Shown: positions 26,031-64,000 of the stretch, piece by piece
Numbering within the stretch: position 1 is the stretch's first letter
Layout: each line of letters begins with the position of its first letter
Origin: a candidate division LCP-89 bacterium B3_LCP
GTDB lineage: Bacteria > Electryoneota > B3-LCP
Assembly: GCA_005223185.1 (NCBI GenBank)
Contig: NJBN01000009.1
Span: 1,321-65,320 of the forward strand
Reading direction: 5' to 3'
Length of the DNA: 64,000 nt
Notes under the pieces: generated by a model
Told to the model about the DNA's origin: nothing
Seen by the model: the letters and a program-made list of their open reading frames with translations, nothing else
Database searches by the model: none
Position numbers and translations under genes: made by a program

Positions 26031-26043
26031 TCCCCTATGATTG

Positions 26044-28346: not shown

Positions 28347-28358
28347 TCCCCATGATTG

Positions 28359-29876: not shown

Positions 29877-29925
29877 GACAGCCTCCTTTTTTGGACTTTA
29901 TACTTCAGTCTTATACTTTATATTT

Positions 29926-34164: not shown

Positions 34165-34282
34165 AGTTAGTTAATACAGCTACTTAGGATGGTATTCGAG
34201 GAAAAGCGGATATTACTAGTTTATAATATACTAAATATTTTCCTATTTGTCAAGTGGTTTTCTCTTCTCAGGGAAAATTTGT

Positions 34283-34318
34283 ACAAAAAATAAAGGGCAG
34301 ACACACAGGCCTGCCCTT
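34283..34318 (-). terminator. Rho-independent terminator of the C25 protease gene
   Basis: Minus sense: GGGCAGGCCTGTGTGTCTGCCC followed by TTTATTTTTTG. Confidence 0.65.
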
Positions 34319-34343
34319 TCATTTTCTTGGAACATTTTCCTTC

Positions 34344-42913: not shown

Positions 42914-42932
42914 TAAAATAAAGGAAGGAGCT

Positions 42933-44275: not shown

Positions 44276-44287
44276 TGATGGATAAAT

Positions 44288-45421: not shown

Positions 45422-45423
45422 GA

Positions 45424-46494: not shown

Positions 46495-47831
46495 TGAATG
46501 CAAAACCTGAAACGTGCACGCTGGATGCATTAACTCTGGAATGGGAGCGTGTAGAATTACTGGCGCGCTTTCTCTCAGATTCGCGTGCAGGGCACACGAT
46601 TCCTCAAGAGAAATTAGATCATCTGCAGTCGCTCCAACAGCAGATAGATGTGTGCAGGAAGCAGACCAATCCCTGGAATGATCTGGTTCCGGTGAGGCTT
46701 TCTCCGCTTGAGCAGGATATCCTGGCATGTATCATCGCACCTGAGGCTATCCCCCGCATCGCCTGGCTATTTCAGTCGCTGCAACCGGGAGTTCCCCAGC
46801 CCTATCCAACTTTAGCTCTCTTACAAGAATTATTAGCTCTTTCACCGACCGAATCTTCCCAACTTTATACGGTTCTTTCAGAAGACTACCCCTTACGTAT
46901 GCACCGTCTGGTCGATCTGCAGGGTAGTGAATTATCCCAGCCGGTACAGCCTTCACCAAGAGTAATTTCGATTTTGTTACAGCGCCCACACCTGATGAGC
47001 AATCTTCCCGGCACAGTACGAATTCGAAATTCTGTTAGCTGGGCAGATTTAATTCTACCTCAGGAGCGTAAGACGATCCTAAAAGAATTTCTGTTCTGGA
47101 TTCAACATAAACAGATTGTAGTTCAGGAGTGGGGCGGCAGCGACTGTGGTGGTCCGATCGGCCTATTTTCAGGCCCCTCAGGTACTGGAAAAACGCTGGC
47201 TGCTGTCGTTTTAGCCAATGAATTAGGATGGCCCCTGTACCGCGTCGATTTAGGATGCCTGGTCAGTAAATACATCGGTGAAACCGAAAAGAACCTGAAC
47301 CGATTATTCGATGCCGCCCACGAGCAAAAACTGGTATTGCAGTTCGATGAGGCAGACAGCCTGTTCAGCAAACGTGGCGAGGTGAAAGAAGCTCGCGACC
47401 GTTATGCTAATATGGAGGTCAGCCATCTGTTGGCGCGCATCGAAAGTCACCAGGGGCCTGTGATTCTGACTACAAATTTACGCAAACATCTCGATACCGC
47501 CTTCGTACGACGTTTCCAGGTTGTTGTCGATTTCCCGAGACCGGATAAAACGGCCCGGGCGCAGTTGTGGAAATGTCATTTGCCTGCAGGAGCACCTTTA
47601 TTGCCTGAAATTGACCCAGCTTTCTTAGGTGAGGCGGTTAATTTGACAGGTGGGCACATCCGTAATGCGGCACTGTACGCCTCTTATATTTCGGCTGGAT
47701 ACGGGCAGAAAATCGGTTATAAGCAGATATCTCTCGCCGTATGGCGCGAACTCAACAAGGAAGGCAGAGAGGTTTCACAATCCGACCTGGGACCGTTAGC
47801 GGAATATTTAGTATTGGATGGTCTATGTTAG
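46494..47831 (+). CDS. AAA+ ATPase (Afp15/Pvc15-like)
   Basis: Walker A GPSGTGKT, Walker B LVLQFDEADSLF and a sensor region. TGATG overlap with the upstream gene. Confidence 0.85.
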   Translation: MNAKPETCTLDALTLEWERVELLARFLSDSRAGHTIPQEKLDHLQSLQQQIDVCRKQTNPWNDLVPVRLSPLEQDILACIIAPEAIPRIAWLFQSLQPGVPQPYPTLALLQELLALSPTESSQLYTVLSEDYPLRMHRLVDLQGSELSQPVQPSPRVISILLQRPHLMSNLPGTVRIRNSVSWADLILPQERKTILKEFLFWIQHKQIVVQEWGGSDCGGPIGLFSGPSGTGKTLAAVVLANELGWPLYRVDLGCLVSKYIGETEKNLNRLFDAAHEQKLVLQFDEADSLFSKRGEVKEARDRYANMEVSHLLARIESHQGPVILTTNLRKHLDTAFVRRFQVVVDFPRPDKTARAQLWKCHLPAGAPLLPEIDPAFLGEAVNLTGGHIRNAALYASYISAGYGQKIGYKQISLAVWRELNKEGREVSQSDLGPLAEYLVLDGLC

Positions 47832-48067
47832 TGATCGATAAACTGAAGATTCATCTTCCAGCACAGATGCGCAACCGCGCTGATATAATTGCACGATTGG
47901 TTGCACAAGAGTTGACCTCCACTTCCCAGAAATCGGAAATAACGATAAGCGAACTTAGAACGCCTGCTGTACAGGTACATTCATCTTTCACCGATAATCA
48001 GATTGCACGGTGCATTTCCACCGAAATCCAAACTCAAATCAATCAATTGTCCGTTGAGTCATGTTGA
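47826..48067 (+). CDS. Small hypothetical protein (80 aa)
   Basis: The ATG overlaps the ATPase stop (ATGTTAG). The listed ORF 47741-48067 is longer, but its 5' part overlaps the ATPase in another frame. Confidence 0.3.
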
Positions 48068-48696
48068 AAACTACTAAAGCAATGCTGGTGGAGTATGCCT
48101 TATCCATTCCACCGCTAATTTTACTTTTCGAGTTTAATCCCAAGTTTCTATCGCGCACACGCACTATCACCCTAAAGACTGGAAACGCACCCGGCACTCA
48201 GGGCGGTTACGATTTCACTTTACCGACGGAGACTCCCCGGGTAGCGCAGGGAGTAACCGTTCAACCTGAAACCTTTTCCATAGACATTTTAATCGATGGC
48301 ACTGACCGCATGAATGAGGGTAATGCTATCGTTAAGACGTTTGGTATCGAACCGGAACTCGATACTCTGCGCTGCATGGTTGAACCGAAATCGCAAGGCC
48401 CATTAGGCTTGCAAACCCTGTCCAGTTTGGGACTTGGTGGCGAACGAGCATTTCAGCAATCTGAATCTGCATCGGTGTTGCTTCTGGTTTGGGGTACACA
48501 TATTCTACCTATTTTTCTCACCAGCGCTCAGATTAAGGAAACTGCACATCTTCCTTCCCTGGTACCTTATCGCGCGGAAGTGACCCTCAGCATGCAAATC
48601 ATCGAAGGAAACAACGTCTTTTACATGGTGGAAAAGATACGCCAGGTGGTAAGTGCGGCGATGAACACAGTCGATACTATTGGAGGATTCTTTTAA
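48061..48696 (+). CDS. Hypothetical baseplate/tube-associated protein (possibly Afp7-like tube initiator)
   Basis: 211 aa. Overlapping start and stop on both sides (ATGTTGA; TAATG). Immediately followed by the LysM/gpX gene, as in Afp7, where the tube-like and LysM domains are fused. Confidence 0.35.
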   Translation: MLKTTKAMLVEYALSIPPLILLFEFNPKFLSRTRTITLKTGNAPGTQGGYDFTLPTETPRVAQGVTVQPETFSIDILIDGTDRMNEGNAIVKTFGIEPELDTLRCMVEPKSQGPLGLQTLSSLGLGGERAFQQSESASVLLLVWGTHILPIFLTSAQIKETAHLPSLVPYRAEVTLSMQIIEGNNVFYMVEKIRQVVSAAMNTVDTIGGFF

Positions 48697-48986
48697 TGTT
48701 CAAGAAGGGTTCAAGGTACGAGAAAGCCAGGACGTTCGACCCGGATGCGGATGGCAGCGTGGTGTTAAATGGAGTTCGTCCACGTAAGATCGGCAAGGCA
48801 ACCGGCATGGTAATGCATACGGTTAAGGCTGGTGAACGCATCGATTTGCTGGCACATCATTATTATAACGATGACCGTTTATGGTGGAGGATTGTCGATG
48901 CCAATCCAGAGTTCTTCTACGGAGGAAATATCATTACCAAAGAAATGGAGGGCTCCGTCATCATGATTCCGAAAGCAAAGGAATAG
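48696..48986 (+). CDS. LysM-like tail protein X (P2 gpX family)
   Basis: The pattern …GERIDLLAHHYYNDDRLWWRIVDANP… is a LysM / P2 gpX signature. 96 aa. Confidence 0.7.
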   Translation: MFKKGSRYEKARTFDPDADGSVVLNGVRPRKIGKATGMVMHTVKAGERIDLLAHHYYNDDRLWWRIVDANPEFFYGGNIITKEMEGSVIMIPKAKE

Positions 48987-48987
48987 C

Positions 48988-50124
48988 ATGATACTAGATT
49001 TATTAGCATCTATCTTCAGGGAACCGGGAGAATGCGTTATCAAGGTCGGGAGTTCTGGCGAAGAGATAACTAGTCTATACCCATTCGTAAAGGAACTCAC
49101 CGTCGATTGCAGTCGTAGCGAACCGAGCCAGGCTAATCTCAAATTCGAGACGAGAAGGGACGAAAACGGAAAGTGGATTGTCCAGGATAGCGGAATTTTG
49201 GCTCCCTGGGAGCCCATCGTTATCGAAGCAGTTTTCGGAAGCACAACGGAAGAAATCATGCGCGGATACATTCGTGAAATAAACGCGGATTGCCCTGCGG
49301 AAGCCGGTGAATGCACCGTTACTGTAAAATGTCAGGACGAATCGTTGCAACTGGATCGTGAACACCCACGAACCACCTGGGGACAGGATGCTCCCACCAG
49401 CGACAGCGTCATTATCAATACGATTTTGAGCAACTATAGCCTTTCCCCTGCTCCTGATAATGAATCCGGTCAGGATGAACTGGTTATCAATCAGGACGAT
49501 ACAGACATCAAATTTCTGCAGCAGAGAGCGGAAGCCAATGGTTATGATCTGATGTTTCGTGAAGGGAGTGTTTATTTCGGTCCCATGCGGGTCGATGCGG
49601 AAGCTCAGGCGACAATTATGGTCTATGCTGGAACCGCGACCAACTGTTATAACATCAGTATAAAGGATGACGGGCACCAACCGGACAGTGTCAGCTTCGA
49701 CCGACCGAATACCACTGAACCGGGGAATGTCCCAGCGACCATCGAATCTGATCTCACAGAACTTGGGACAGATTCGACACTGGGACTGGGCGATGGGTTG
49801 AAGGATTTTTCCTGGCGGATGAAACAACAGGGCGGTATGAGTGAAGCGGAATGGACTGCGCGTGCTCAGAGGAAAGCCAATGAGTTGGCTATGAAAGTGA
49901 AGGCTCAGGGCGAACTTGATGGGTCTCTTTACGGACACGTTCTGCGCGCCGGTGAACCGGTCGGTGTGGATGGGGTTGGGGAGAGATATGGGGGAATTTA
50001 TCTAGTCGATACGGTAAAACATTTGTTCAACATGGATGGTTACCGCCAGACTTTCACATTGCTGCGAAATGCCTATGGGGATAATCTGGAGAGTTCAGGT
50101 GACCTGTTATCAGCGGTTCTCTAA
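48988..50124 (+). CDS. Baseplate hub protein (phage late control gene D / gp27-like, VgrG N-terminal homologue)
   Basis: 378 aa. The N-terminal pattern (…EL.VD.SRSEPSQANLKF…GKWIVQDSG……W.PIVIEAVFG…) is typical of the Phage_GPD family. Confidence 0.65.
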   Translation: MILDLLASIFREPGECVIKVGSSGEEITSLYPFVKELTVDCSRSEPSQANLKFETRRDENGKWIVQDSGILAPWEPIVIEAVFGSTTEEIMRGYIREINADCPAEAGECTVTVKCQDESLQLDREHPRTTWGQDAPTSDSVIINTILSNYSLSPAPDNESGQDELVINQDDTDIKFLQQRAEANGYDLMFREGSVYFGPMRVDAEAQATIMVYAGTATNCYNISIKDDGHQPDSVSFDRPNTTEPGNVPATIESDLTELGTDSTLGLGDGLKDFSWRMKQQGGMSEAEWTARAQRKANELAMKVKAQGELDGSLYGHVLRAGEPVGVDGVGERYGGIYLVDTVKHLFNMDGYRQTFTLLRNAYGDNLESSGDLLSAVL

Positions 50125-50133
50125 GGAGGTATA

Positions 50134-50946
50134 GTGGAAGAGGTACTTCTCCAATTAGCCAGGAGACTTCAGAATAAATACTATGGGAAGTATCGAGGTT
50201 TTGTGGTCGATAACGATGACCCGGAACAGTTGGGTAGAGTTCGACTATTGATACCGTCAGTCCTGGGTGAGACAGAGACGGGATGGGCGTTGCCCTGCCT
50301 CCCTTTCGGTGGTCTGGAAGATCAGGGTTTTTTCGCCGTTCCGGGAGTAGATGCACAAGTATGGGTGGAATTCGAGGAAGGCAACATTAACGCACCTATA
50401 TGGGTAGGAGTTTTCTGGCAGAACAGTGGTGAAATCCCCTCAGAAGGAGCCCTGAATCCGCCCACTACCACGGTGATTAAAACCTCTTCAGGGCACACTT
50501 TTCATTTCGATGATGAGGAGAATGCAGAAAAGATCTGTCTCATTCATAAATCAGGAGCGGAATTATGCATCGACGAGAATGGCACTGTAGTACTGAAAGA
50601 TGCGCAGAAAAACGCCCTGACTCTGGATGCTGACGGGACCACGATCACTTTAGAAGATGCCAATGGAAATACCTTATCGACAAGCTCTACCGGTATGACC
50701 CTGCAAGATTGCAACGGTAATAAGATAGATATGACTACTTCAGGGATCACCATCAAGGCACAGGAGATTACGGTCGAAGGAACGCAAGTTCTGTTGGCTG
50801 GTGCGGGTGGAGAACCGGTAATTAAAGGTCAGAGTTTCCTGACTCTTTTTGCAACTCATATTCATCCAACCGGCGTGGGTCCATCAGGCCCGCCGGTTCC
50901 TCAAGGTGAGATGAGCACCTTATCAATGAAGACGATGACAACCTAA
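50134..50946 (+). CDS. Spike protein (P2 gpV / T4 gp5 OB-fold, VgrG C-terminal homologue) with beta-helical C-terminus
   Basis: GTG start with an AAGGAGG RBS. Signature GKYRGFVVDNDDPEQLGRVRLLIPSV (Phage_base_V). C-terminal repeats (T.D.NG…L.D.NGN.I) are typical of spike beta-helices. Confidence 0.8.
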   Translation: MEEVLLQLARRLQNKYYGKYRGFVVDNDDPEQLGRVRLLIPSVLGETETGWALPCLPFGGLEDQGFFAVPGVDAQVWVEFEEGNINAPIWVGVFWQNSGEIPSEGALNPPTTTVIKTSSGHTFHFDDEENAEKICLIHKSGAELCIDENGTVVLKDAQKNALTLDADGTTITLEDANGNTLSTSSTGMTLQDCNGNKIDMTTSGITIKAQEITVEGTQVLLAGAGGEPVIKGQSFLTLFATHIHPTGVGPSGPPVPQGEMSTLSMKTMTT

Positions 50947-50957
50947 AGGGGCATTTA

Positions 50958-51347
50958 ATGTCTGCGAATAATAACCGCAACCTGGCCAATCCTGAATATC
51001 TTGCCTTTCCATTTCGAATTGACGAGGATGGAGGTGAGAAATGCGATCGGGCTGCGCATGTTCGTCAGCAAATAGAGCAGGTGTTATATACCAATCCTTA
51101 CGAAAGAATCTTTCGCCCTGAATTCGGTGTCGGTCTAAAGAAATTGGTGTTCGAGCCAAACTCATCGGCACTCGCTGAAATAACCAAAAAGCGATTACAA
51201 TCATCTTTAGCCGAAGCCCTTAAGGGCGAGGTCGATCCAAAAACCATTGTGGTGGATGTGAACCCTGATGAGGAAAAACTAATCATTAGTGTTTCATACA
51301 CATTGGCAACAATTGGAACGACGGAACAACACGAGTTTTTAATTTAA
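50958..51347 (+). CDS. Baseplate wedge protein gp25/GPW-like (Afp9-like)
   Basis: The pattern G.GW.FP……..G……I.QSI..IL.T..GER…P.FG..L is matched by LAFPFRIDEDGG…VRQQIEQVLYTNPYERIFRPEFGVGL. 129 aa. Confidence 0.8.
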   Translation: MSANNNRNLANPEYLAFPFRIDEDGGEKCDRAAHVRQQIEQVLYTNPYERIFRPEFGVGLKKLVFEPNSSALAEITKKRLQSSLAEALKGEVDPKTIVVDVNPDEEKLIISVSYTLATIGTTEQHEFLI

Positions 51348-51363
51348 CAGTCAGATATAACTT

Positions 51364-52554
51364 ATGGCACAAGCGCCCAAATCTACACTTAAATTCGAAG
51401 GCGGTTGCCCGGATTGCGGCGTTCGGGAGGTAGCGTTACCACCAGCACTTCCCCAAGTCGGTGATGACTTCGATTGGATGACGCGAGACTTTGATAGTTT
51501 TCGCCGTTTTATGCTTGAAGACCTGGCAGCAAGATTTCCCGAAAGAACCCGCTGGACTCCCGGGGATATGGAAGTGGTCATCATAGAAGTCATGGCTGCC
51601 GTCCTGGACCAGATTTCTGACATGGCTGACCGGGTGGCTGCTGAAGCTTATCTGGAAACCGCTCGTAATCCTAACTCCGTAAGGCGTCTTCTGCAGATGA
51701 TTGGCTATGATGCTGCCCTGTTAGCCGATCTAAAAGATGACGATTCTTCCTTAAGTAATAGCAAAACAAAAGAAGAGAAACTTGAGGCTCTCTGGCGACA
51801 AAATCCCACACTGATGGAAGAAGCCAGAAAAAAGGGCCCGCGACTGATAAAAACTCAGAAACGCATGGTAACCATAGAGGATTATGCTCAGCAATTGGAA
51901 GAACATCCCCTGGTATTGTGCGCTAACGCATCCAGCCACTGGAGTGGAAGTTGGACAACTCTGAAGGCTGCCGTAATCTGCTGGGGTGAAGATAATTATT
52001 TGGATGAATATTCAAATAAGTTAACCGAGCCTACGGAAGATCTGCAGAAGGAAGTTACTGAATTTCATAAGGAACGAAATATAACCACCCCTGATTGGAA
52101 TAGTGACACTTTGCCCACGATTCGCACCATTCTCCGGCCCTACATTGAAGGTTACCGGATGGTCGCACAGGAGGTCATTCTTATCGATGCCGTTCCTGTT
52201 GGAATCCAGATGTCAATTAGCGTTTTCATCAATGTGGATTATTATCAATCGGAAGTAAAACATGCAGTGGAACAGGCGTTGGGAACCGGACCGGAAGGTT
52301 TCTTCAAACCGGGACGGTTAGCTTTCGGTGAAGATTTGCACACCAGTGACATATATGAGAAACTGATGTCGTTGAATGGGATTGAAAATGTTTGTCTTAA
52401 CCGTTTCAAGAGGTTTGGAAATCAATACTTAGATCAATCCCGTACGGGAACCATAAAATTAGACGGTTTAGAAGTAGCTGTTTGCGACAACAATCCACAA
52501 AAACCCGAACGTGGTTTCTATCAACTGTTGCTGGAAGGGGGACGAAGAGGATGA
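51364..52554 (+). CDS. Baseplate J-like protein (P2 gpJ / T4 gp6 N-terminal homologue)
   Basis: The segment DFDSFRRFMLEDLAARFP……DM.EVVIIEVMAAVLDQISDMADRVAAEAYLETARNPNSVRRLLQMIGY matches the conserved N-terminal region of the baseplate_J family. Confidence 0.65.
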   Translation: MAQAPKSTLKFEGGCPDCGVREVALPPALPQVGDDFDWMTRDFDSFRRFMLEDLAARFPERTRWTPGDMEVVIIEVMAAVLDQISDMADRVAAEAYLETARNPNSVRRLLQMIGYDAALLADLKDDDSSLSNSKTKEEKLEALWRQNPTLMEEARKKGPRLIKTQKRMVTIEDYAQQLEEHPLVLCANASSHWSGSWTTLKAAVICWGEDNYLDEYSNKLTEPTEDLQKEVTEFHKERNITTPDWNSDTLPTIRTILRPYIEGYRMVAQEVILIDAVPVGIQMSISVFINVDYYQSEVKHAVEQALGTGPEGFFKPGRLAFGEDLHTSDIYEKLMSLNGIENVCLNRFKRFGNQYLDQSRTGTIKLDGLEVAVCDNNPQKPERGFYQLLLEGGRRG

Positions 52555-55500
52555 GTGAACGCTTCGATCTCACACGCTGGAATCGCGCCGGTTTGAGCCG
52601 CTTTCGATATTTAAACGGCAATGCGGTAACCCACCTTGAGGATCTACGTAAGGCATTTCTGGCTGTTGCGAAGTTCGCTGATTGGGACGTACTTTCAGCC
52701 ATCGAACCGGTAGAAGTCGTATCTCCGAACAGCGATGAGGGTGAAATCGCAGCCGCATCTGCCCCCAGGTGGCTGAATAGTAACCAGGTGCCCTCTGGTG
52801 AGACTGGAAAAAGCGAGACAGAATCTGAGAAGATTGAGCGTCTTTTAGAAAATTACAACCGCGAACGGGAAGATTGGGCTTGGGAAATCTCCAGGGCGTT
52901 CGCGCGGGCCTGTCACGTTTTAACTGAGCATGTTGATTGTTACGCCAATGAAGGATTCTTAGGCACTGCTACCCAGTGGGATAACGTCCGGCGCTTAGTA
53001 GAGATGATAGACTATCATCCGGCTCCACCAGCATCAGCTTCTACACCACTTATTATCAAAGCAAAAGAAGGACTAAGCGGTACTATCGAAGCTGGTTTTC
53101 AGGCTAAGTACGCGCCTTCCGATGGCAGTGAACCGCTGATCTTTGAGACTCTGGATGATCTGGAGGTGGATTCCCAAATCAACGAAATCCGCCCTCTGAA
53201 TTATAACCGCAATCAGGATACGCAAAGCGGTAAATCGTTCATTGTCGATGAGGTTATCGAAGACCTCGTCATCGGTGAGCCACTGGTTCTGGAGGATGAG
53301 AATAACGGGAATCTATTTGCACGGATAGTCACCGGTTTTAGTACAGAGGACACCGGGACGAGAATTACACTTGACCAAACGTTACCCGAACCCGAAGCTG
53401 ATGATTCCTTAACTAAAGGCTACATGAAAATCCATGCAATACCGAAAGACCGTCTCACCTTATTGGGACCAGCAGAAGAGGGCAACGTACAGCAACTTGA
53501 CACTCTTCACCTGACAACAGAGCCAGAGGAATTACTGCCTGAAATGGTTGTATATATCAGTGATGGTAATAATCACTATTACAGATTTATTTCCTCGCTT
53601 ACACAAAACTGTATAGAATTGAGTAACACAATAAGTGACCTCTATCTGAGTAAAGCCCAGGTCGGGCTACCGGTTCTTATATCTGCCACCAAGGTTACGG
53701 ACGGTGGAAGTGGTGTTAATTTGATTCAACCAATTGTCGAAAATATGGGCCAAGTCATTGAGGTTGGTGAGAACGTCGGAGCTGTATATAAAACGTCTTC
53801 CGCAAACATCAGCCTAAGCAGCAAGGGTAGTGAGAGCGGCAACATTGAGAATATGGGATTTAGTGTAGAGAACCTTCAAGCCGCCAAAGCTGGTGAGTCC
53901 GTTGAAGTTAAATCCAAAGTGCCTAATACAGGAAGAGACATAACTTTTCAGGTTGGTGAAGACGGCAGCGTTCAATATAAAGTAGCTGGAGATTGGGAAC
54001 GTTTGGCAGGAAAGAAAATTGCTATTGCTATGGAGAAGAATAATCCAATTAGTTTTGATTTAATTTCAGTCGATTATCATGAATGTGTCGAAAATGAATA
54101 CGATTCTCTCCGTGGTTATACTGTGTTTAAGATCGCTGATAATTCTAATTTGAACCCTGATCAGGACTTCTTAGTCCCCCCTGCAAATGACGGTGAGTGG
54201 AAAACCGATACGTTCCTCGAGAGAGATGACAATACCAATACTATTCCTTCCGGGATAACCACCGAGGAACCCCAGAAGACCTCTGCAGGAGACATTGCCG
54301 TAATCGTTCGCAATGGTGGATACGCCTGGGCACGTCTGGAGTCTGTTTCCCTGAATGCGGAGGATGAAGAAGCTAGTCTGACGGCTGAAAGTGGCAGAGA
54401 GGAGTATTGGAAGGAGTATCCGAATAAAAATAGTGAGCGTAGATTCTACCTGACTGAAACCACCGTATTCGGGCATTTTTCTAAGGAGCTTCGTATTCAC
54501 GATTGGCAAGTCAACAACCTATCGCTAACAGGCACGGACGTTTCCACCGAAACTGTTCCTGACTGTTTGGATAAGGGCAGGCGAGTTATCGTCGTCAATG
54601 AAGACAATAGCGATTTAACATTGGACACGACCGTAGCCGATATCCAGAATGATAATGATACTGATACTGTGATTTTGAGTGATCCGCTTCCTTCTGGTTT
54701 TACCTACGGAAATACTGTCCTGCGCGGAAATGTCGTAACGTGCGGACACGGTGAATCCAAGGGTGAGAAAGTGCTTGGCAGCGGTGATGCAACTCGGTCG
54801 AACCAGAGTTTCCTGTTTAAGGAAGAGGGCGTGTCCTTCACTGCTGATGCAACCCAACTTTCCGGTGTGCGAGCCGCCATAGATGTTCAAGTTAACGGGG
54901 AGACCTGGGAACAGGTTGGAAATCTGAATTACTCCGAACCAACGGACAAACAATATACTATTCGCATGGCTGAAGATGGTTACCTGCTGATAGGTTTCGG
55001 AGATGGCCGAAAGGGCAGGCGCCTACCCACAGGAACCAACAATGTCAGGCTCACCTACAGAAAGGGGGCCGGCCTAAGTGGGAACATAAGCGCGGGCGGT
55101 ATCACAAAACCGGCAAAACCGAATAGACTGGTGGATACTATTCAACAACCCTTCGCGGCGACAGGTGGCAATGATATGGAGGGGGTCGAGTCGCTACGTG
55201 AGAATGCTCCTGCCACCCTGCTAACACTGGAACGTGCAGTTTCCCTGACGGACTACAGCAATTTAGCTAACAGCCACAGCAGTGTCTGGCAGGCGAAAGC
55301 CTTTTCTCTTCCGACTGGTCTGGGCCGCAATGAGATAATTGAGGTAGTGGTTGTTCCTGCCAATGGGGGTTTGTTGGGCGATCTGAAAGAAACTCTTCGA
55401 AGTTATATCGCAGAATACTCATTGCCGAACGTCACCATATTAGTGGAAGATTATGAATCTATCAGTTTCTCTCTGGACGTGATTCTGAACGTCAACACAA

Positions 55501-56216
55501 CCGGCTATGACCCGGAAGAGGTTGTTGTAGCAGTAAAAGCAGCTCTGGAAGATGAATTCTCACTGAAAAATCGCAAACTGGGGCAGGCGGTTTACCTAAG
55601 TGAAGTGTACAAAATTGTCGAAGCTACTGCAGGGGTTGAGAATTCCAGAGCCGAACTTAACGAAGATCCGGACGCCCTGAAAATCCCCACGAATAACACG
55701 AATAACAAAAGAGCTGTGCAGATAATCGGCGAGTGCATTGTTACTTATGTTAGCTCTACAACCCAGACTAGCACCGGATTATCAGGACCAGGACCAACTT
55801 CACCACCGAGCGTTGTTCTATCCATCGGCGCGAGAGATCCCTCAATCATCCAGGGGATTGGCACGAAATACCAAAGCATTCTTGCCAGTCAGGGGGTAAG
55901 AACAATCGAAGGTTTGGCTAAACTCGATCCGGAGATTAGCATAGCAGGTATCGCCAGTACGAGACGTTGGTGGTTTAGCACCCGTGCCAGGATCATTCTG
56001 GAGTCTGAATTTGACAGCTCGCAGTTATACGCTCTTCAGAACTATTCCGTAATGGCTATATTACAAAGCCCAACCAGCGATCTATACAATTCCACAGGCC
56101 TCTCTACCGATGTAATCAGCGAGACGAAATCAAGTCTAAGGCGTTTGCAGAGTATTATCGATGACGAGGTTCTCGAACAGGTTACGTTGAGAGAATTATC
56201 AAAATCATCGCGTTAA
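52551..56216 (+). CDS. Large baseplate protein (1222 aa, Afp11/gp6-gp7-like)
   Basis: ATGA overlap with the upstream baseplate-J gene. Size and position match the large eCIS baseplate subunits. The real start MSERFDL is at 52551, not at the ORF-track start 52482. Confidence 0.55.
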   Translation: MSERFDLTRWNRAGLSRFRYLNGNAVTHLEDLRKAFLAVAKFADWDVLSAIEPVEVVSPNSDEGEIAAASAPRWLNSNQVPSGETGKSETESEKIERLLENYNREREDWAWEISRAFARACHVLTEHVDCYANEGFLGTATQWDNVRRLVEMIDYHPAPPASASTPLIIKAKEGLSGTIEAGFQAKYAPSDGSEPLIFETLDDLEVDSQINEIRPLNYNRNQDTQSGKSFIVDEVIEDLVIGEPLVLEDENNGNLFARIVTGFSTEDTGTRITLDQTLPEPEADDSLTKGYMKIHAIPKDRLTLLGPAEEGNVQQLDTLHLTTEPEELLPEMVVYISDGNNHYYRFISSLTQNCIELSNTISDLYLSKAQVGLPVLISATKVTDGGSGVNLIQPIVENMGQVIEVGENVGAVYKTSSANISLSSKGSESGNIENMGFSVENLQAAKAGESVEVKSKVPNTGRDITFQVGEDGSVQYKVAGDWERLAGKKIAIAMEKNNPISFDLISVDYHECVENEYDSLRGYTVFKIADNSNLNPDQDFLVPPANDGEWKTDTFLERDDNTNTIPSGITTEEPQKTSAGDIAVIVRNGGYAWARLESVSLNAEDEEASLTAESGREEYWKEYPNKNSERRFYLTETTVFGHFSKELRIHDWQVNNLSLTGTDVSTETVPDCLDKGRRVIVVNEDNSDLTLDTTVADIQNDNDTDTVILSDPLPSGFTYGNTVLRGNVVTCGHGESKGEKVLGSGDATRSNQSFLFKEEGVSFTADATQLSGVRAAIDVQVNGETWEQVGNLNYSEPTDKQYTIRMAEDGYLLIGFGDGRKGRRLPTGTNNVRLTYRKGAGLSGNISAGGITKPAKPNRLVDTIQQPFAATGGNDMEGVESLRENAPATLLTLERAVSLTDYSNLANSHSSVWQAKAFSLPTGLGRNEIIEVVVVPANGGLLGDLKETLRSYIAEYSLPNVTILVEDYESISFSLDVILNVNTTGYDPEEVVVAVKAALEDEFSLKNRKLGQAVYLSEVYKIVEATAGVENSRAELNEDPDALKIPTNNTNNKRAVQIIGECIVTYVSSTTQTSTGLSGPGPTSPPSVVLSIGARDPSIIQGIGTKYQSILASQGVRTIEGLAKLDPEISIAGIASTRRWWFSTRARIILESEFDSSQLYALQNYSVMAILQSPTSDLYNSTGLSTDVISETKSSLRRLQSIIDDEVLEQVTLRELSKSSR

Positions 56217-56238
56217 TTATCAATTCCAGGAGTACCCT

Positions 56239-57834
56239 TTGAGTACAGAGCCGGAAAAGAAGGAGAAGATATTTCACCCCAAGATCGGGGATCAACTATT
56301 CCAGTTGCTACCCGAGGTGTATAGAACCCGAGATAACTCGACCGAGGATGCACCGGGTGATTTAGGTAGATATCTAGATGCTTGCGGTGAACTTTTAGAC
56401 TCGATCTATTATACCCTGGATCAGCGGTTGGCGGATTCATTCCCCGATGTTCCTGAAAAAGGATTGACCTGCCAAACCTGGCTTCTCCCTTACATGGCGC
56501 AGCTCCTGGATGCCAGGTTGACCTCCCCCGATGCGGACGGGAAACGCACAGAAGTGGCAAACGCCATTTTGTGGCGGCAGAGTAAGGGCACTTTTCCGTG
56601 CATCGAAAAGGTTGCCGAAGCAGTGGGGCGGCTTGACATTGAACCTCAGGAAGGTTGGAAACGGGTGGCTACCACAGCGCGGATCGGAATGCCATTACTG
56701 CGCTCGGAAGCATTGGGAATTCCGGAGGATTTCGATAATCCTTCATATATGGCTCATCCTAACTTCGCATCCCGGCATCCCGGCTTGCCTTCGGTGACCA
56801 TTGATTTTCGCAGGCCCTCCCATGCAATTCAGGTCGGTGAAGGTAAAGAGATCGCCAACCGTGAAGCGGTCACCAAGGAAACCAAATTAAAAGTCAAGGA
56901 CATATTCTGGTATCAATGCCATACGCATGTGTATCCCTGCTATCCTGGAACTTACGAAGACGTATCCAGACGAACTGTAGATGTTCGTACACCTTCGTGG
57001 AAACATGGTCATTATCACCCCAAGAGGTTACTGCTTTATGAACCGATTCCCGCAGGCTTTTTTGAATTTGGGGAAATCTATCCTGCAAAAAATATGGTGA
57101 TAACAGAATCCACCACCTTAGAGAATGCGGTCATCAAAGGTAAGATAACAGTTAAAAACGGAACTCTGACCCTGAAACGCTGTGCGGTTCGTGAGATAGA
57201 ATATAGCTCGAATTGGCAGAACAAAGGTGCTAAGGAACCGATATTCATTGCTGAAGACAGTCTGATCGGTTCCACAACTGCGAATATACCAGGGTTGGTG
57301 CTGATGGAGTACTGCACGGTATTGGATAATTTTGACTGCAATTACATTCGTGCAAGCGACTGTATTTTTAAGGGAGAACTTAACGTTTCGGGGAAGATAC
57401 TTGCTATAATAGATGAAAAGGGTATAAACAGATCAAACTGCGTCCGTTTTTCGAGGATTCCACAGGATACCTTTATACCGGGAATGGATGTCCATCCAGA
57501 ATCCTTTGATACGAACACTCACGAGCCGCCTATGTTTTATAAGACGATGGAATTCGAGAACAACGCCACATCCTATCATCCAATCGCCTTTGGTGATCCG
57601 GGGTGCGGGGTGCTGCACCCATCGACGCCGGATTCCATTAGGTTTGGCGCCGAAGATGGCGGAGAGATGGGCGCTTATCATTACAAACAGTATTGTCTGC
57701 GGGAAGCTGCTATATTGGATAAATTAAAGGATTTCCTGCCGGTTGGAATAGAAGCGGCTTTAATTCCCGATCACCGCCTAAACGAAAAGCCTTTATCCTG
57801 CGAAGATAAACCAGGAACCGAATCGACGGAGTAA
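56239..57834 (+). CDS. Baseplate protein, phage P2 gpI family (Afp12-like)
   Basis: TTG start. WLLPYMAQLLDARL…EVANAILWRQSKGT matches the P2 tail protein I signature (LP.LA.LLG…WR.KGT). Confidence 0.65.
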   Translation: MSTEPEKKEKIFHPKIGDQLFQLLPEVYRTRDNSTEDAPGDLGRYLDACGELLDSIYYTLDQRLADSFPDVPEKGLTCQTWLLPYMAQLLDARLTSPDADGKRTEVANAILWRQSKGTFPCIEKVAEAVGRLDIEPQEGWKRVATTARIGMPLLRSEALGIPEDFDNPSYMAHPNFASRHPGLPSVTIDFRRPSHAIQVGEGKEIANREAVTKETKLKVKDIFWYQCHTHVYPCYPGTYEDVSRRTVDVRTPSWKHGHYHPKRLLLYEPIPAGFFEFGEIYPAKNMVITESTTLENAVIKGKITVKNGTLTLKRCAVREIEYSSNWQNKGAKEPIFIAEDSLIGSTTANIPGLVLMEYCTVLDNFDCNYIRASDCIFKGELNVSGKILAIIDEKGINRSNCVRFSRIPQDTFIPGMDVHPESFDTNTHEPPMFYKTMEFENNATSYHPIAFGDPGCGVLHPSTPDSIRFGAEDGGEMGAYHYKQYCLREAAILDKLKDFLPVGIEAALIPDHRLNEKPLSCEDKPGTESTE

Positions 57835-57837
57835 GTC

Positions 57838-60800
57838 ATGAAAACGCAAATATCACGGGATAGTTACAGCAAGAAAGACCGTTATTCAGGCGTGTACCAG
57901 CAACAAGGACGCATGCTCACCGATGCGGACTGGAACGAGTCCATCGAAGTCTTCAAGGGGCTTCTACAGGAAGCCTTGAAAGACGTCATAGGTGATGGTG
58001 CGCCGCGGTCAAATGCACTCACCATTGAACAATCATCTGGTCTTAAAAAGAAAATCTATATCAAACCTGGTGATCTCTATGTGGATGGTCTGCGTGCTGA
58101 ACTTGCTGAACTTTCGGATGGGTCAAATATAGCCCTCAATGGACAAGATGATCTCCCCCTCGATGAACAGTGTTATCTCCCCACCGGTAGCAATTTCACA
58201 AATCCCACAAACTGTATTATCTATGCGGACGTCTGGGATCGTTCGATAACGTCCTTGGAAGACACTGACCTGCGTGATCCAGGCCTTCACGGAGCGGATA
58301 CCTGTACCCGTACTCAGCGCATGTTACAGATCAAATGGTGTCCGGACACTATCGACCCGGAAAATCCTGATGAGATGGTTAGAAAAGGAGATGCAGCGCT
58401 AACCCTCGAGTTGAGGTCCAACGAACCCTCTGCTGATGTCTGCAATCCCTGTTCGCAGTTACTCGAATCCGAGATTGGCGATGTGGGCAACTACCTGTTC
58501 CGTTTGGAAGTGCATGATATAGAGGTTGATGAAACATCTGGCAATCCGACCAAACTTACCCTGAAGTGGTCATCTGAAAACGGTGCTGAAAGCTACGAAG
58601 CCAAGAGTGAATCCGAGATGCCGCCGGGATTTGTTAACAGCTTTTCCGACGACGGCAGTTATGTGTATGAATTCTTCAGCGATACCAGTGAAAAGCACTT
58701 AGGCGTACATAAAGCGACTGAGTATAAGCCGATACGGGGTGCAATTAAAGAGAGCTACGATCCAAAAAGTGAACCATACGTCCGCCGCTGGGATGGCTAT
58801 TGCATTCTCACATATTCCGGGGGGGAGTGGTCGCTGGAAAAAACCAAAGTATTGGGCAAGAATAAGTACAAGGGAACGGATTCGAACAAAAGATTAGAAG
58901 AGAAAGCTACCCTAAAAGATAAACAACTCGGCGACGTCGTTATCAATAACGACATCGTCATACAGCTTGAAGCGTTGCAATTGACATTAACCTTGAAAGA
59001 TAATAACTTTGTCGCTGGAGACTACTGGTTGGCGCCAGTACGCGCTGAAGTTGAATATCTCGACGATTTTCTTTTAATCAATGCAAAGCCGATTGGAATC
59101 GATCATCACTATCTCACTCTCGCAAGCGTGGATAACAATGGAGATGTAACTCAGTACGGTGACATGAATGATAAAAATCACCGCCGTCAAAATTTCCCAC
59201 CTCTGACTGATCTCAATGCTGAGGAAATTGGATATACCACTGATTGTAGTAATGACTTATTCGATTCTACAGACGATAATGTTGCGAAGGCACTAAACAG
59301 ACTTTGTCAAATTGCGGCAGAGCACATAGGCTTTTCCAATCCATGTCCAAAAAAAATAGGAATATTCAAGGGCGAAGAGATTGGTAACGTGGAAGACGCT
59401 TTGAATCTCTTGTGCCACCTGGCGGCTTCACATGTTAAATACACGCCCGGCGGTTGTATAAACAAAGTCGGAGAAGATGAGGAATTATATTATGGCATGG
59501 TAGAAAATACGGTGCAAGAAGCGCTGGATAAAATATGCGAGATTACAGCGAAACACATTACTTATGATCCGAGTTGTGCCTTTCTGAGGGATCAGAAGAA
59601 TCCTAAGATTGAAACAGTTCATGAAGCTCTCGAAGCGCTTTGCAACCGACCTACTGGCGGCAGCGGTGGGTGTAGAGTAACTGTGGGAAAAAAGGAAGAA
59701 GGAGCTGAGTTTGAGACACTAGATGAAGCGTTATCGTCTTGTTTGAGTCCCCAAATTAAAGACGTCTGCATTTGTCTTCTTCCCGGAAATCATAAGCCTC
59801 CATCTCAAGGAATACTTACAGAATTCAAAGGAAATAATTCGGAAGTCTCGAAGGGATTAAACATCAGTATAATAGGCTGCGGTCCAGGGTCTCGAATTGG
59901 CCTTGGGGATCAATCCCTTGAGTTCTCTCAGTTTAATTCTCTAACGTTTAAGGATTTCGAGTTTAATAGTTCAGAGAATGGCGGAGCACAATTATTTTTC
60001 GATAGTTGTACTAATGTGAATCTCTCTTCAATTAATTATGAAGGACATGTTGGCGATAAATCATCGCTGGTGAAGATAGGCGATGCAGAACGTATCCAGC
60101 TATTAGGAAACAAGTTCGAAGCCCGACGCTCCGATAGTCCGGAAAATCCTGCGGAGGTCTTCGAGTTTAATCCGGGGTATTCCGAATTGTTCCGCTTGTC
60201 TTCAAGGAATGAATTTCTCAAGGAGGTTCCTGAAGTAGCGCGAGAAATGAGCAGCCGTTTCTCTAAGGGGGGTGAAGTTACAAAAGCTCGCAATTCCATA
60301 ACCAACAGCAGGAATGCCATAGTAGCAAATCAACAGACAACTCACAAGGAACAAGTAAGTTACGATAGGCTCTTAGGTGTAATATCAGCGGCTGAAACGA
60401 TGGAACCTGAAATGGCAACAGCAGTTTACGCTGACATCTTAGTGCAGATATACGATTTTGCGCGTGAAGCAGCCCTTGAATGCTCACTGTCACTGATGGA
60501 TGCAAATGCTCAGACCATAATAAAGAATAATATCTTCAAAGGAGCTATTAGTCTATATGGTGAGCCGCCTGATAGCAGCGTTACTATAAATCTTGACGAT
60601 GAAATCCTCGGCAGCCAGCTTTTTAACCAGACGCTTAACCTGGCGACCTCAGATGTTGATTTACACTTCTGCAACAATGAAGTTATCAAATTTATCCTCG
60701 GTGCGCGTTATGCTGAGAGCCTTGCTGGAGCTCTAAAAGGAAAAGGTTCTACAATATCGGACTCAATACCGACGCTTTTTAAAACCGGTTATTTTACTGA

Positions 60801-61506
60801 TAACACGATAAAAGAATCGTATAACTACTTTTACTTTGGGCATCTTGACCTGACCTCCAACTCTTTTGAAACTTTAGAAGAAAATGCTGGTTTTGTGTTC
60901 GGTGGTTCCGCAATTTATGTAGGAAACAAGGGTAATAAAGGAGAAGAGGTAAGCAAAATATACAACTGCACCAATGCCTGCAGAAAAGCAGCAAATCTTC
61001 ATCTAAACATACAGGGATGTGAGGATCGTGTCTATGAAAATCCACCGGTAGTGGGAATAGACCTCGGTAGTTTAGGGATAACCGGCAATTACGCCGTTGC
61101 CTGGCAACCCGGGTCTATAACTCCGACAATAATAGACAAATCATCAAGTGTACTTACACCTACGCCTACACCTAGGCTTACGCCGACACCTACACCAACT
61201 CCGACACCTACGCCAACACCGACACCTAGGCCTACGCCAACACCAACGCCAACACCGACACCTAGGCCTACGCCAACTCCTACTCCAACACCTACGCCTA
61301 CGCCAACTCCTACACCTACGCCTACACCAACGCCAACACCGACACCTAGGCCTACGCCAACACCTACGCCTACACCAACACCTACGCCTATACCTGCACC
61401 GTTGACTCAGATTAAACCAACCGGCAAACCAAAGTCAACTGGAAAGTCTAAATCGCCAAAGAAAACCAGAGGGCCAGGAAAAACTAAACCCAAGAAGAAA
61501 CCTTAG
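57838..61506 (+). CDS. Tail fibre-like protein (1222 aa) with C-terminal (Thr-Pro)n linker and poly-Lys tail
   Basis: Position after the P2-I-like gene (the Afp13 slot). Cys-pair-containing repeated modules. About 80 residues of TPTPTPRP repeats (61153-61400), followed by [30 protein letters not shown]. Confidence 0.6.
61153..61400 (+). repeat. Imperfect tandem hexanucleotide repeat encoding (Thr-Pro)n
   Basis: ACACCTACGCCTACGCCAACACCGACACCTAGGCCT… units repeated about 40 times. An alternate frame gives the artefactual ORF 61148-61405 (LRLHLGLR…). Confidence 0.9.
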
Positions 61507-61561: not shown

Positions 61562-62923
61562 ATGAAAACCTTCGCTACTGTAGAAAAGCGCCAGGCGGAT
61601 AAGCCCCCGGTATTTGTGTATAATCCTTCTCTGAAGACCGAGCAGAAGCAGATAAGCCGCATCCTTCGCCCTCATACTGTCCAACCCAAACTCACCATCG
61701 GCGCACCCAACGACCGGTACGAACGGGAGGCCGACCGCGTCGCTGACCAGATCGTACGCATGCCTGATCACACTCTGCAACGGCAGCCGTTGGAGGAAGA
61801 GGAGGAGCTCCAGACCAAGCCCCTTGTCGATCAAATAACGCCGCTGGTGCAGAGGCAGGTTGAGGAGGAAGAAGAAGAGCTCATCCAGACGGTTCAGAGA
61901 CAATGCGATGAGGAAGAATGCTCTATCCAAACTCAGCAGGAGGTAAATCGCACATCAGAAGTAACTCCCGGTCTTGCTTCACAAATACAAGCCATCCGCA
62001 ATGGTGGCAGACAACTACCTCAGGGATGCCGCAACTATTTCGAACCGCGCTTTGGGCGTGATTTCAGTGATGTAAATATTCACACCGATTCTAAAGCCGC
62101 CGACATAGCTAAATCAGTAAATGCCAAGGCATTTACCATAGGACAAGACGTATTCTTCGGCTCAGGGCAGTTTGCACCCGGAACAGATAGTACAGAGCGC
62201 CTGCTAGCGCACGAGTTAACGCATGTGGTGCAGCAATCGTATGGAAATTCACAGAATTTTAATATACAAACGACAAACGGGGCAACTCCCACTACCTCTC
62301 TTTCAGGAATACGAGCTAATCGGATTGCATTTAACAATACAGGTTCCCCAAATAGTGATAACTGTGCAACTACTCAGCCTGCATCACTGGGAGTAGGGAT
62401 TAATGGTAACGCCCAGAATGCCATGGAAATTATTTACAGAATCAGTGGATCCATTCCACCGGGAACTGAGTTCGATATTACTCGAACTGTAAGAGATAAT
62501 GCCTGGGCAAGGAGTTCAGCAGGAACATGGACAAGTGTTGAACAAACACCGGCGGGAACGAAAGATGACTATCATGATTCTGATGAATGTCTAATACCTA
62601 ATGCGAATCGCATATTTGTTACGGATTCGCCTGGATTTAATGGGCTCAATCCAAGAGGAATGGTACTTGCAGCAGGTAATACTGTTCCAGCATTGGCAAC
62701 AGCATTCGTTTTTAAATTAAACTTTGCTGAATGGGTTATCGCTAGGAATCGTTCCCTGGGCATCGGCTGGACTACTATCTCCTCACCAGTATTTACTTTC
62801 TGGCACTCAATTACGTCGGTGTCTCTTAGTGGAGGTACTTGGAGTCTCGTAAATTTCCCAAACGCAGCAAACGAGATAGAACTAGGCAGTATAAGCACAT
62901 CAGGCGCAAGCCCTACAACCTAG
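61562..62923 (+). CDS. DUF4157-domain protein (zincin-like HExxH) with unique C-terminal domain; candidate eCIS effector
   Basis: The conserved block (…TIGAPNDRYEREADRVADQIV…GGRQLPQGCRNYFEPRFGRDFSDVNIHTDSKAADIAKSVNAKAFTIGQDVFFGSGQFAPGTDSTERLLAHELTHVVQQ) is the DUF4157 signature. It is followed by about 220 aa with no recognisable motif. Confidence 0.75.
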   Translation: MKTFATVEKRQADKPPVFVYNPSLKTEQKQISRILRPHTVQPKLTIGAPNDRYEREADRVADQIVRMPDHTLQRQPLEEEEELQTKPLVDQITPLVQRQVEEEEEELIQTVQRQCDEEECSIQTQQEVNRTSEVTPGLASQIQAIRNGGRQLPQGCRNYFEPRFGRDFSDVNIHTDSKAADIAKSVNAKAFTIGQDVFFGSGQFAPGTDSTERLLAHELTHVVQQSYGNSQNFNIQTTNGATPTTSLSGIRANRIAFNNTGSPNSDNCATTQPASLGVGINGNAQNAMEIIYRISGSIPPGTEFDITRTVRDNAWARSSAGTWTSVEQTPAGTKDDYHDSDECLIPNANRIFVTDSPGFNGLNPRGMVLAAGNTVPALATAFVFKLNFAEWVIARNRSLGIGWTTISSPVFTFWHSITSVSLSGGTWSLVNFPNAANEIELGSISTSGASPTT

Positions 62924-63620
62924 CAACTGATAAATTTCTATGAGACTATTCGCCTCAAAAAACAGATATCCCACTAGAAAATCTTTCCTAGCATTGGGTC
63001 TTACGACTAAAGCCACCTTTTCCAATTCCTCGTCTTCCCACCCCCAACTCCGCCGCATCCTCCGCCCCCATTCCATCCAAACCAAGCTCACCATCGGATC
63101 ACCCAACGACCAGTACGAACGTGAAGCTGACCGCGTCGCTGATCAGATCGTGCGCATGCCTGATCACACTCTGAAGCGGCAGCCATTGGAGGAGGAAGAG
63201 GAAGAACTCCAGACCAAACCCATTGCTGATCAGATAACCCCGATGGTTCAAAGGCAGATAGAGGAGGAGGAAGAAGAAGAGCTCATCCAGCCTGATCGGT
63301 TACCGATAATTCAGAGACAGGAAGAAGAAGAGGAGGAAATAGTCCAGACCCTGCAGAGACAATGCGATGAGGAAGAGTGCCCCATCCAAACTCAGCAGGA
63401 CGCAAATAGATCATCAGAAGTAACTCCCAATCTCGCCTCACAAATACAAGCAATCCGAAGTGGCGGCAGATCCTTACCACAACCCTGCCGCAACTATTTC
63501 GAACCCCGCTTCGGCCGCGATTTCAGCGATGTCCATATTCACACCGATTCTAAAGCCGACGACGTAGCCAAATCAATAAATGCCAAAGCATTTACTTTAG
63601 GACAAGACGTCTTCTTCGGA
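61667..63620 (+). repeat. Tandem duplication of the DUF4157-encoding segment (61667-62235 and 63033-63620)
   Basis: Long stretches of nucleotide identity, for example CGAACGGGAGGCCGACCGCGTCGCTGACCAGATCGTACGCATGCCTGATCACACTCTG against CGAACGTGAAGCTGACCGCGTCGCTGATCAGATCGTGCGCATGCCTGATCACACTCTG. Confidence 0.8.
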
Positions 63621-64000
63621 TCGGGCCAGTTCGCACCCGGAACAGAAGGGACGAAGAAGCTGTTGGCGCATGAACTGACGCATGTGGTGCAGCAGAATTC
63701 GAATATCTTAAATTTTTCAAACATAATAATGCGAAAACAAAATCCAGCAGAAGGAACGGAGTGCAAAGAGTTTAAAGGTAGGTGGATTAAGAAAATAGTC
63801 GTCAATCAGGAGGGAGACCAGAAAGTCCACCTATATTGGAATGATGATAAAAAATCAGATACTGACAAATGTTCCACTGGAAAGGGGCACTGCTGTGTTG
63901 AATCTGATGGAATTGCCTGTTCTGAATCACAGTCTAGAGTTGGGGGAAGCAACTGTACACCAGTTAGTAGAGGTGATGGTGAACCTATTCAGAAATGCTA
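62940..64000 (+). CDS. Second DUF4157-domain protein (3' end beyond window) with different, Cys-rich C-terminal domain; candidate eCIS effector
   Basis: Frame 3 ATG at 62940. Absent from the ORF track because there is no stop codon in the window. The N-terminal 230 aa are about 85% identical to the upstream paralog, including LLAHELTHVVQQ. The C-terminus diverges (…ECKEFKGRWIKKIVVNQEG…CSTGKGHCCVESDGIACSES…). Confidence 0.7.
   Translation, partial: MRLFASKNRYPTRKSFLALGLTTKATFSNSSSSHPQLRRILRPHSIQTKLTIGSPNDQYEREADRVADQIVRMPDHTLKRQPLEEEEEELQTKPIADQITPMVQRQIEEEEEEELIQPDRLPIIQRQEEEEEEIVQTLQRQCDEEECPIQTQQDANRSSEVTPNLASQIQAIRSGGRSLPQPCRNYFEPRFGRDFSDVHIHTDSKADDVAKSINAKAFTLGQDVFFGSGQFAPGTEGTKKLLAHELTHVVQQNSNILNFSNIIMRKQNPAEGTECKEFKGRWIKKIVVNQEGDQKVHLYWNDDKKSDTDKCSTGKGHCCVESDGIACSESQSRVGGSNCTPVSRGDGEPIQKC

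Follow-up and report, generated by a model that had tools for sequence, protein, structure and literature searches.

What are the two adjacent genes that close an extracellular contractile injection system (eCIS) operon in the candidate division LCP-89 bacterium B3_LCP, and what would their products do? The genes lie in a 64,000-nucleotide stretch (hereafter the window, positions 1-64,000) of contig NJBN01000009.1 (137,450 bp, from a metagenome-assembled genome), and the window ends inside the second of them. Gene A (61562..62923, + strand) is an open reading frame (ORF) of 453 codons whose product matches NCBI protein TKJ38539.1 (CEE37_12295) exactly; gene B begins at position 62940 on the same strand, and the first 353 of its 837 codons (62940..64000; TKJ38540.1, CEE37_12300) fall within the window. 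Each product carries an N-terminal domain (NTD), a DUF4157 core and a C-terminal payload, and the payloads differ. We consider it probable that both products are cargo (effector) proteins, carried by the eCIS particle whose genes lie immediately upstream; the two have the NTD and DUF4157 in common and are distinguished by what follows. This reading of the pair as cargo is well supported, and it is also what the field already expects.

Genes A and B form the 3' end of a complete eCIS operon, with about 20 kb of eCIS genes upstream of them. Gene A starts 55 nt past the stop codon of the fibre gene (61506), and gene B starts 16 nt past gene A, with no ORF in this short gap. A promoter and terminator scan of the fibre-A-B junctions gave no signal above chance. 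Both proteins match PF13699, formerly DUF4157 and now named eCIS_core (eCIS core domain), gene A at residues 151-227 (105.8 bits, E 1.3e-30) and gene B at residues 179-254 (105.2 bits, E 2e-30), each against a threshold of 22. The initial annotation had placed two DUF4157 genes carrying HELTHVVQQ right after the fibre gene, and the ORF spacing and the profile matches (E about 1e-30) bear this out; the motif, with an intact HExxH, is present in both proteins. UniRef names the gene A product 'eCIS core domain-containing protein' and the gene B product 'L,D-TPase catalytic domain-containing protein'. Neither tblastn nor scans with hidden Markov models (HMMs) brought up another DUF4157 copy, whole or vestigial, in the rest of the window.

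The gene A product divides into an NTD of residues 1-133 (61562..61960, +), delimited by predicted disorder and composition, a DUF4157/eCIS_core domain of residues 134-228 with a zincin-like fold (61961..62245, +; HELTH at residues 217-221), and the payload, here called CTD-A, of residues 230-453 (62249..62920, +), which a structural model and a family alignment identify as a conserved all-β domain. In gene B the NTD spans residues 1-178 (62940..63473, +), homologous to that of gene A from residue 36 on, and the DUF4157/eCIS_core domain, with HELTH, residues 179-254 (63474..63701, +). By BLASTP, residues 30-227 of A align with residues 36-254 of B and the similarity ends directly after HELTHVVQQ. 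The first 230 residues had been described as near-identical, but the shared block is the one just given, with 83% amino-acid identity over 198 aligned positions at the codon level and a 20-residue insertion, an extra acidic repeat, in the acidic linker of B; the first 29-37 residues of the two proteins show no credible alignment. The nucleotide identity of the shared block, put at about 85%, was slightly overstated: it is 79-83% in the codon-level alignment and 84% by blastn over aligned positions, falling to 76% when gap columns are counted. The C-termini were said to be unrelated, and we found no similarity between them. The two proteins are thus paralogues with a constant N-terminal part and unrelated C-terminal domains, as expected of polymorphic toxins, and this pattern, already proposed for the pair, matches that of Cgo1 and Cgo2 of AlgoCIS, the eCIS of Algoriphagus machipongonensis, and of the cargo described by Geller 2021 and Danov 2024. 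For a constant N-terminal module with a variable C-terminal payload there is experimental evidence from Cgo1 and Cgo2 (PMC8894135; bioRxiv 10.64898/2026.05.27.728243) and bioinformatic support in the latter two studies (PMC8213781, PMC11297309).

The shared N-terminal part itself has two unlike halves. In an AlphaFold2 model of gene A residues 1-235, residues 1-133 had pLDDT values of 46-62 and were nearly all coil, whereas residues 134-228 had values of 87-96 and formed an α/β core ending in the HExxH helix, which is the zincin fold. The gene A NTD is acidic and Gln-rich, carries the KLTIGAPNDRYEREADRVADQIVRMP motif and EEEE linkers, and is presumed to be a system-specific loading sequence. 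A comparison took in 31 DUF4157 cargo genes, those of the window and of the retrieved loci, with seven sources (six of these loci and the window) supplying the within-locus pairs. Mean NTD identity was 0.52 within a locus and 0.22 between loci, whereas identity of the DUF4157 core was roughly equal (0.62 and 0.56). The A/B pair is closer (NTD 0.70, core 0.84) than the cargo pairs of other loci. This seven-locus comparison gives independent support to the disordered NTD as the system-specific part and the DUF4157 core as the generic one, and such specificity of the NTD is relevant to engineering eCIS cargo loading. In AlgoCIS the NTD is needed for loading and DUF4157 is dispensable, and NTDs are alike within a system but not across systems (PMC8894135; bioRxiv 10.64898/2026.05.27.728243). 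The earlier proposal of a constant loading domain therefore holds in part: the disordered NTD is the likely loader, but DUF4157 in that role is doubtful given its dispensability in AlgoCIS.

By analogy with AlgoCIS, the disordered acidic NTD common to A and B would most likely serve as the system-specific loading signal, recognised while the proteins are packed into the tube lumen with the aid of the Afp15-like AAA ATPase. DUF4157 would then be a minimal zincin module with an accessory part, perhaps in processing, release or refolding of the payload. The gene B payload would be a double enzyme, a YkuD L,D-transpeptidase or carboxypeptidase followed by a pyroglutamyl-peptidase (C15)-like domain, and the β-sandwich of gene A would be another effector, loaded on its own and perhaps likewise aimed at the cell wall.

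The identity of the gene B payload came from its relatives. A word-index homology search with the C-terminal fragment of gene B visible in the window gave no match, nor did Pfam or NCBIfam on this fragment alone, but an exhaustive phmmer search of 1.84 billion representatives returned 71 relatives. The top match, a protein of 837 residues (P0023), agrees with the query at every position (100% identity), and residues 1-353 are the translation in the window. The complete second gene, whose recovery the initial annotation had proposed, thus encodes TKJ38540.1, an 837-residue product composed of the NTD, DUF4157, a YkuD domain, a helical linker and a C15-like domain. Pfam places the YkuD L,D-transpeptidase at residues 285-403 with 28.9 bits, above the gathering threshold of 23.4, and scores for the relatives of gene B range from 25.7 to 29.1 bits. 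By a local HMM match, the visible end of gene B (63747..64000, +) is the N-terminal half of this domain, including its family-specific Cys-rich insert; this half had been judged to hold no recognisable motif. An alignment of 20 full-length relatives showed H375, S388, H389, G390, C391 and R393 to be invariant. The signature SHGC[VI]R occurs in 66 of the 71 relatives, and in P0023 it reads SHGCIRL at residues 388-394, outside the window. The Cys-rich string quoted in the initial annotation is indeed present in the translation, and the richness in cysteine is due to an insert of the YkuD domain, CSTGKGxCC...SNCTP, which is invariant in the same 20 relatives and reads CSTGKGHCC...GIAC...SNCTP in gene B. 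DUF4157 stands at the N-terminus in 60 of the 71 relatives of this Cys-rich YkuD variant.

The linker and C15-like extension are present in 31 of the 71 relatives. In P0023, Pfam Peptidase_C15 (PF01470) scored below its threshold (20.2 against 22.7 bits) and covered residues 614-666 only, but a family profile compared with the PDB matched at least 18 solved pyrrolidone carboxyl peptidases (best 1a2z, E 3.3e-07). In the alignment to these enzymes the positions of the Cys (YLCNE) and the His (LHxP) correspond; that of the Glu (FEVE) comes from the alignment only. The nucleophile position is occupied by Ser (FLSNE) in 26 of the 27 motif-bearing proteins and by Cys (YLCNE, at about residues 760-770 of P0023) only in gene B. 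Compared with its relatives (P0027-P0079), gene B has at this position the Cys of true pyroglutamyl peptidases. N-terminal pyroglutamate is nevertheless unlikely to be the substrate of the gene B C15-like domain. By analogy with Tlde1, a type VI secretion system (T6SS) effector discussed below, the gene B payload would most likely damage the peptidoglycan stem peptides of a bacterial target.

With YkuD and C15-like domains identified, the C-terminus of gene B is not an unrecognisable fold. A protein labelled 'DUF4157,YkuD' is listed as a predicted eCIS toxin with a score of 0.9976 in the supplement of Danov 2024 (PMC11297309), and a YkuD gene lies beside afp15 in Chitinophaga pinensis (Geller 2021, PMC8213781); in the main-text passages of these two studies covered here, no test of a DUF4157-YkuD protein is described. 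In the portions of their text and supplementary files covered here, neither the tandem of YkuD and C15-like domains nor CTD-A as a named domain was found. The suggestion that both C-terminal domains may be new toxin folds is therefore narrowed to one of them: a DUF4157-YkuD architecture like that of gene B is already catalogued as a predicted toxin, and CTD-A is left as the sole candidate of the pair for a new fold or function.

CTD-A gave no Pfam, NCBIfam or PDB sequence match and has no fold relative in the PDB, the fold comparison having been made against solved structures. Structure modelling, also proposed in the initial annotation, returned a confident all-β sandwich (AlphaFold2 with a 23-sequence alignment, pLDDT 88.5, pTM 0.82). 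The domain had been called Ser/Thr/Gly-rich, and at 32% S+T+G it is, but it is a well-folded domain and not a low-complexity tract. Its family comprises 76 clusters and is tight and isolated, with no fringe of faint, remote matches. GT.DD....DEC, IF..D.PG and FAEWV.AR are among its invariant motifs, and R79, T80, W86, W94, GT.DD (103-107), DEC (112-114), D126, P128, E161, W162 and R166 are among its invariant residues.

Two subfamilies were distinguished. In the first, at 50-61% identity, CTD-A is joined to DUF4157, whole or in degenerate form, and its gene belongs to an eCIS operon, in most cases flanked by the genes for the AAA ATPase and the second tube protein; the sources span at least six lineages of several phyla (Aminicenantes, Chloroflexia, Egibacteraceae, the cyanobacterium Halomicronema, Geminicoccaceae and many soil metagenomes). 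Four such proteins of the clade of loci L001 and L004 (P0005, P0006, P0009 and P0013) lack the HExxH half of DUF4157 while keeping its start, 'RFGHDFS.VRLH', and carry an N-terminal RKCxCGG...CxxC motif. In the second subfamily, at 36-45% identity, the proteins are stand-alone, about 250-275 residues long and start with MY[VIL]R; ten of them, judged by eye without a prediction tool, had no obvious signal peptide. No eCIS marker gene was seen in six of their loci with several kb of flank (L012-L015, L040 and L043). Encoded next to them are, among others, PG_binding_1 proteins, a murein-endopeptidase-like protein of the M74 type, trypsin-like proteins, amidohydrolases and σ54 components. Two members of this subfamily are fusions, one behind PG_binding_1 (P0111) and one at the C-terminus of a subtilase (L012).

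Several σ54-linked clusters encode such stand-alone CTD-A-like proteins, among them L005 (1465-9066) and L006; other stand-alone loci are L040 (2984-4575, two tandem copies) and L013 (6802-11586). Across L005, L006, L040 and L013 the neighbours include PG_binding_1, Amidohydro_2, the M74-like murein endopeptidase, a trypsin-like peptidase and unannotated proteins of 444, 444 and 612 residues. The PG_binding_1 associations are a hint that CTD-A is linked to the cell wall.

It is conceivable, though less likely than not, that CTD-A is an undescribed all-β enzymatic toxin domain, in which the GT.DD....DEC and FAEWV.AR motifs would form a site acting on the bacterial cell envelope, and that it has spread horizontally across phyla as a plug-in eCIS payload while also serving, free of DUF4157, in a second, σ54-linked system in which CTD-A comes after PG_binding_1 proteins. 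It is likewise conceivable, though we would not call it probable, that CTD-A is a β-sandwich without toxic or catalytic function. It might, for example, bind the cell wall or a ligand, serve as a co-factor, or stand to the neighbouring YkuD effector as an inhibitor or in the manner of an immunity protein. Such a role would suit the CTD-A homologue that forms the C-terminal appendage of a subtilase in L012. It would also suit the gene order, since the CTD-A gene lies directly 5' of the DUF4157-YkuD gene both in the window and in another eCIS clade (L001/L002/L003/L022, L004 and the P0003 locus); in L001 and L004 the YkuD gene is in turn followed by another DUF4157 gene. However, in about ten other eCIS loci (L007/16, L009, L011, L018-20, L024-26 and L031), CTD-A cargo stands beside other DUF4157 genes, up to six in tandem in L031, with no YkuD in the available flank of at most 10 kb on each side. 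A dedicated partner or immunity protein of YkuD is thereby ruled out as a general rule, and because CTD-A and YkuD occur together in some loci and apart in others, we regard them as independent modules drawn from a common pool and not as obligate partners. The NTD-DUF4157 module of gene A is moreover identical in kind to that of other cargo, the 50-61% identity across phyla and the invariance of D, E, C and R residues point to an active site or to a highly specific target, and in P0111, a fusion of PG_binding_1 and CTD-A, the latter occupies the position of a catalytic domain.

A different view of the pair is that the DUF4157 zincin is itself the toxic activity, which would leave the variable C-terminal domains with a targeting, stabilising or accessory role. 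The precedent is VgrG2b of Pseudomonas aeruginosa, whose metallopeptidase toxicity requires its HExxH (PDB 6H56; PMC6899460); the HExxH of A and B is intact, and purifying selection on their DUF4157 core is strong. We nevertheless judge this unlikely. The core is only about 95 residues long, compared with 179 in VgrG2b, and A and B have nothing in common beyond HELTHVVQQ; toxicity of Cgo1 is independent of its HExxH motifs (PMC8894135); and the C-terminus of gene B holds two apparently complete enzyme domains whose putative catalytic residues are conserved, something not expected of an accessory module.

How the pair arose was also considered. The initial annotation had proposed recent duplication followed by exchange of the C-terminal domains, and the genes are in tandem and in the same orientation, their homology breaks off sharply at the very end of DUF4157, and they are more alike than cargo pairs elsewhere, as noted above. 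The C-terminal domains are also lower in GC, at 44% for CTD-A and 39% for the visible C-terminal part of gene B, than the shared N-terminal parts at 51-52%, the window average being 46%; this drop in the payload modules may reflect amino-acid composition or foreign origin. The divergence of the shared block is, however, hard to reconcile with a recent event. The Nei-Gojobori method gave a synonymous divergence (dS) of 0.86 (proportion of synonymous differences, pS, 0.51) and a nonsynonymous divergence (dN) of 0.097, with dN/dS at 0.11 alike in the disordered NTD and the folded DUF4157 core. Because dS is near saturation and dN/dS is low, the two copies are old and have been kept similar by purifying selection, so that their likeness reflects selection on the protein and not recency. 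Both C-terminal domain families are, in addition, old and widespread. A recent gene conversion between the N-terminal parts is opposed by the same divergence data. A recent tandem duplication with cassette exchange is accordingly quite improbable. Less credible still is that gene B is a housekeeping L,D-transpeptidase for the producer's own wall that lies beside the eCIS operon by chance, as its YkuD catalytic motif, though intact, is joined to an N-terminal DUF4157 as in most of its Cys-rich relatives, its N-terminus is hydrophilic with no obvious signal peptide or membrane anchor (by eye, no prediction tool), and its relatives are located inside eCIS operons.

Several considerations weigh against reading A and B as injected effectors. 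We infer their loading, delivery, toxicity and targets from domains, context and analogy. No immunity gene is in view, the window ending inside gene B. A peptidoglycan enzyme that acts in the periplasm would need a route from the eCIS tube to its substrate, and none is obvious. CTD-A carries no assignable catalytic signature, and with generic Ig-like sandwiches as its only structural neighbours it might serve in binding and not as a toxin. Finally, as the HExxH is intact, DUF4157 may itself be an active protease, as in VgrG2b.

The eCIS operon upstream (40922..61506, +) is of the Afp/PVC type and structurally complete by its Pfam matches and ORF coordinates. In order on the + strand, Pfam identifies genes for the sheath (start 40922), a gp19-like tube protein (42933), a T4-baseplate-like protein (43442), Pvc16_N (45418), the Afp15-like AAA ATPase (46491), a second tube protein (48061), a VgrG-like spike (50134), gp25 (50958), Baseplate_J (52482) and P2_I (56239), followed by the DUF6519 fibre gene (57838-61506, 1222 residues). 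The fibre protein begins with DUF6519 and includes a (PT)n repeat longer than 100 residues; its C-terminal tail is Lys-rich, an unusual end for a receptor-binding protein. In related eCIS loci (L001, L004, L009, L011, L018-20, L024, L026 and L031), one to six DUF4157 cargo genes occupy a mid-operon slot flanked by the genes for the Afp15-like AAA ATPase and the second tube protein; in the window this slot is an empty 230-nt gap (47831-48061) and the cargo pair lies 3' of the fibre gene instead.

A gene for a σ54 enhancer-binding activator (38880-40238, +) lies directly 5' of the sheath gene, and two related eCIS loci, L001 (1-722) and the P0003 locus, have the same arrangement. This placement suggests σ54-dependent control of this eCIS lineage; no σ54 site of the form TGGCAC-N5-TTGC with at most one mismatch was found near the eCIS operon. 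Further upstream (22527-38561, -) lies a series of very large proteins with Por_Secre_tail domains, sorted by the type IX secretion system, including a gingipain-like C25 peptidase (34344-38561); a PGA_cap/PKD protein (22527-25481) lies alongside this run, and no Por_Secre_tail domain was detected in it. The proteins sorted in this way are consistent with an organism of the FCB (Fibrobacterota, Chlorobiota and Bacteroidota) group.

The pair leaves the current picture of how eCIS work unchanged. Its interest lies in being a natural pair of one interpretable peptidoglycan-directed payload, which implies a bacterial target, and one compact, confidently modelled and widespread domain that carries no annotation. 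In Danov 2024 (PMC11297309), 983 of the 1130 predicted eCIS effectors are DUF4157 proteins without payload annotation, and CTD-A would belong among these DUF4157-only predictions.

Among known systems, some comparisons concern single domains. The last 225 or so residues of gene B resemble pyrrolidone carboxyl peptidase (C15, PDB 1A2Z) in aligning over the GF(E/D)PF start and over the nucleophile and His motifs and in having Cys at the nucleophile position, but differ in a Pfam score below threshold and in that nearly all relatives have Ser in place of Cys. The DUF4157 core differs from the VgrG2b domain, a stand-alone toxin of 179 residues on a T6SS spike, in that its roughly 95 residues lie between a loading sequence and a payload. 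Tlde1/Tlde1a are T6SS effectors with an L,D-transpeptidase fold (PMC9638812; bioRxiv 10.1101/2020.02.18.954545). Gene B would share with Tlde1 the use of an L,D-transpeptidase-type domain as an injected antibacterial effector against peptidoglycan, as a functional analogy only. Tlde1 belongs to DUF2778, which gave no match in P0023 and four relatives at E values up to 1, whereas gene B has the Pfam YkuD domain with a Cys-rich insert, followed by a further domain that resembles a peptidase, and is associated with an eCIS and not with a T6SS. A DUF2195-type immunity gene adjoins Tlde1, and none is in view for gene B before the window ends within it.

Further parallels are found among the eCIS-associated toxins (EATs), of which DUF4157 is described as a signature (Geller 2021, PMC8213781; Danov 2024, PMC11297309). 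As in the EATs of these studies, DUF4157 lies N-terminal to a presumptive toxin domain in A and B, and the genes stand at the 3' end of the eCIS operon. The closest counterpart is AlgoCIS, in which the adjacent DUF4157 proteins Cgo1 and Cgo2 have a similar disordered NTD and different C-terminal domains (PMC8894135). Cryo-electron tomography and mass spectrometry showed that Cgo1 and Cgo2 fill the tube lumen and exit on contraction (PMC8894135); by analogy, A and B would be expected in the lumen of their own particle. The payloads differ, being YkuD with a C15-like domain and a β-sandwich here, and the NTD sequence is specific to this system. Otherwise the two pairs agree: each is encoded by neighbouring eCIS genes of an FCB-group host, its members resemble each other in the disordered NTD and have DUF4157 in the middle, and they part company in the C-terminal domain. 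Genes A and B thereby extend the Cgo1/Cgo2 layout to candidate division LCP-89, a lineage without a cultured representative.

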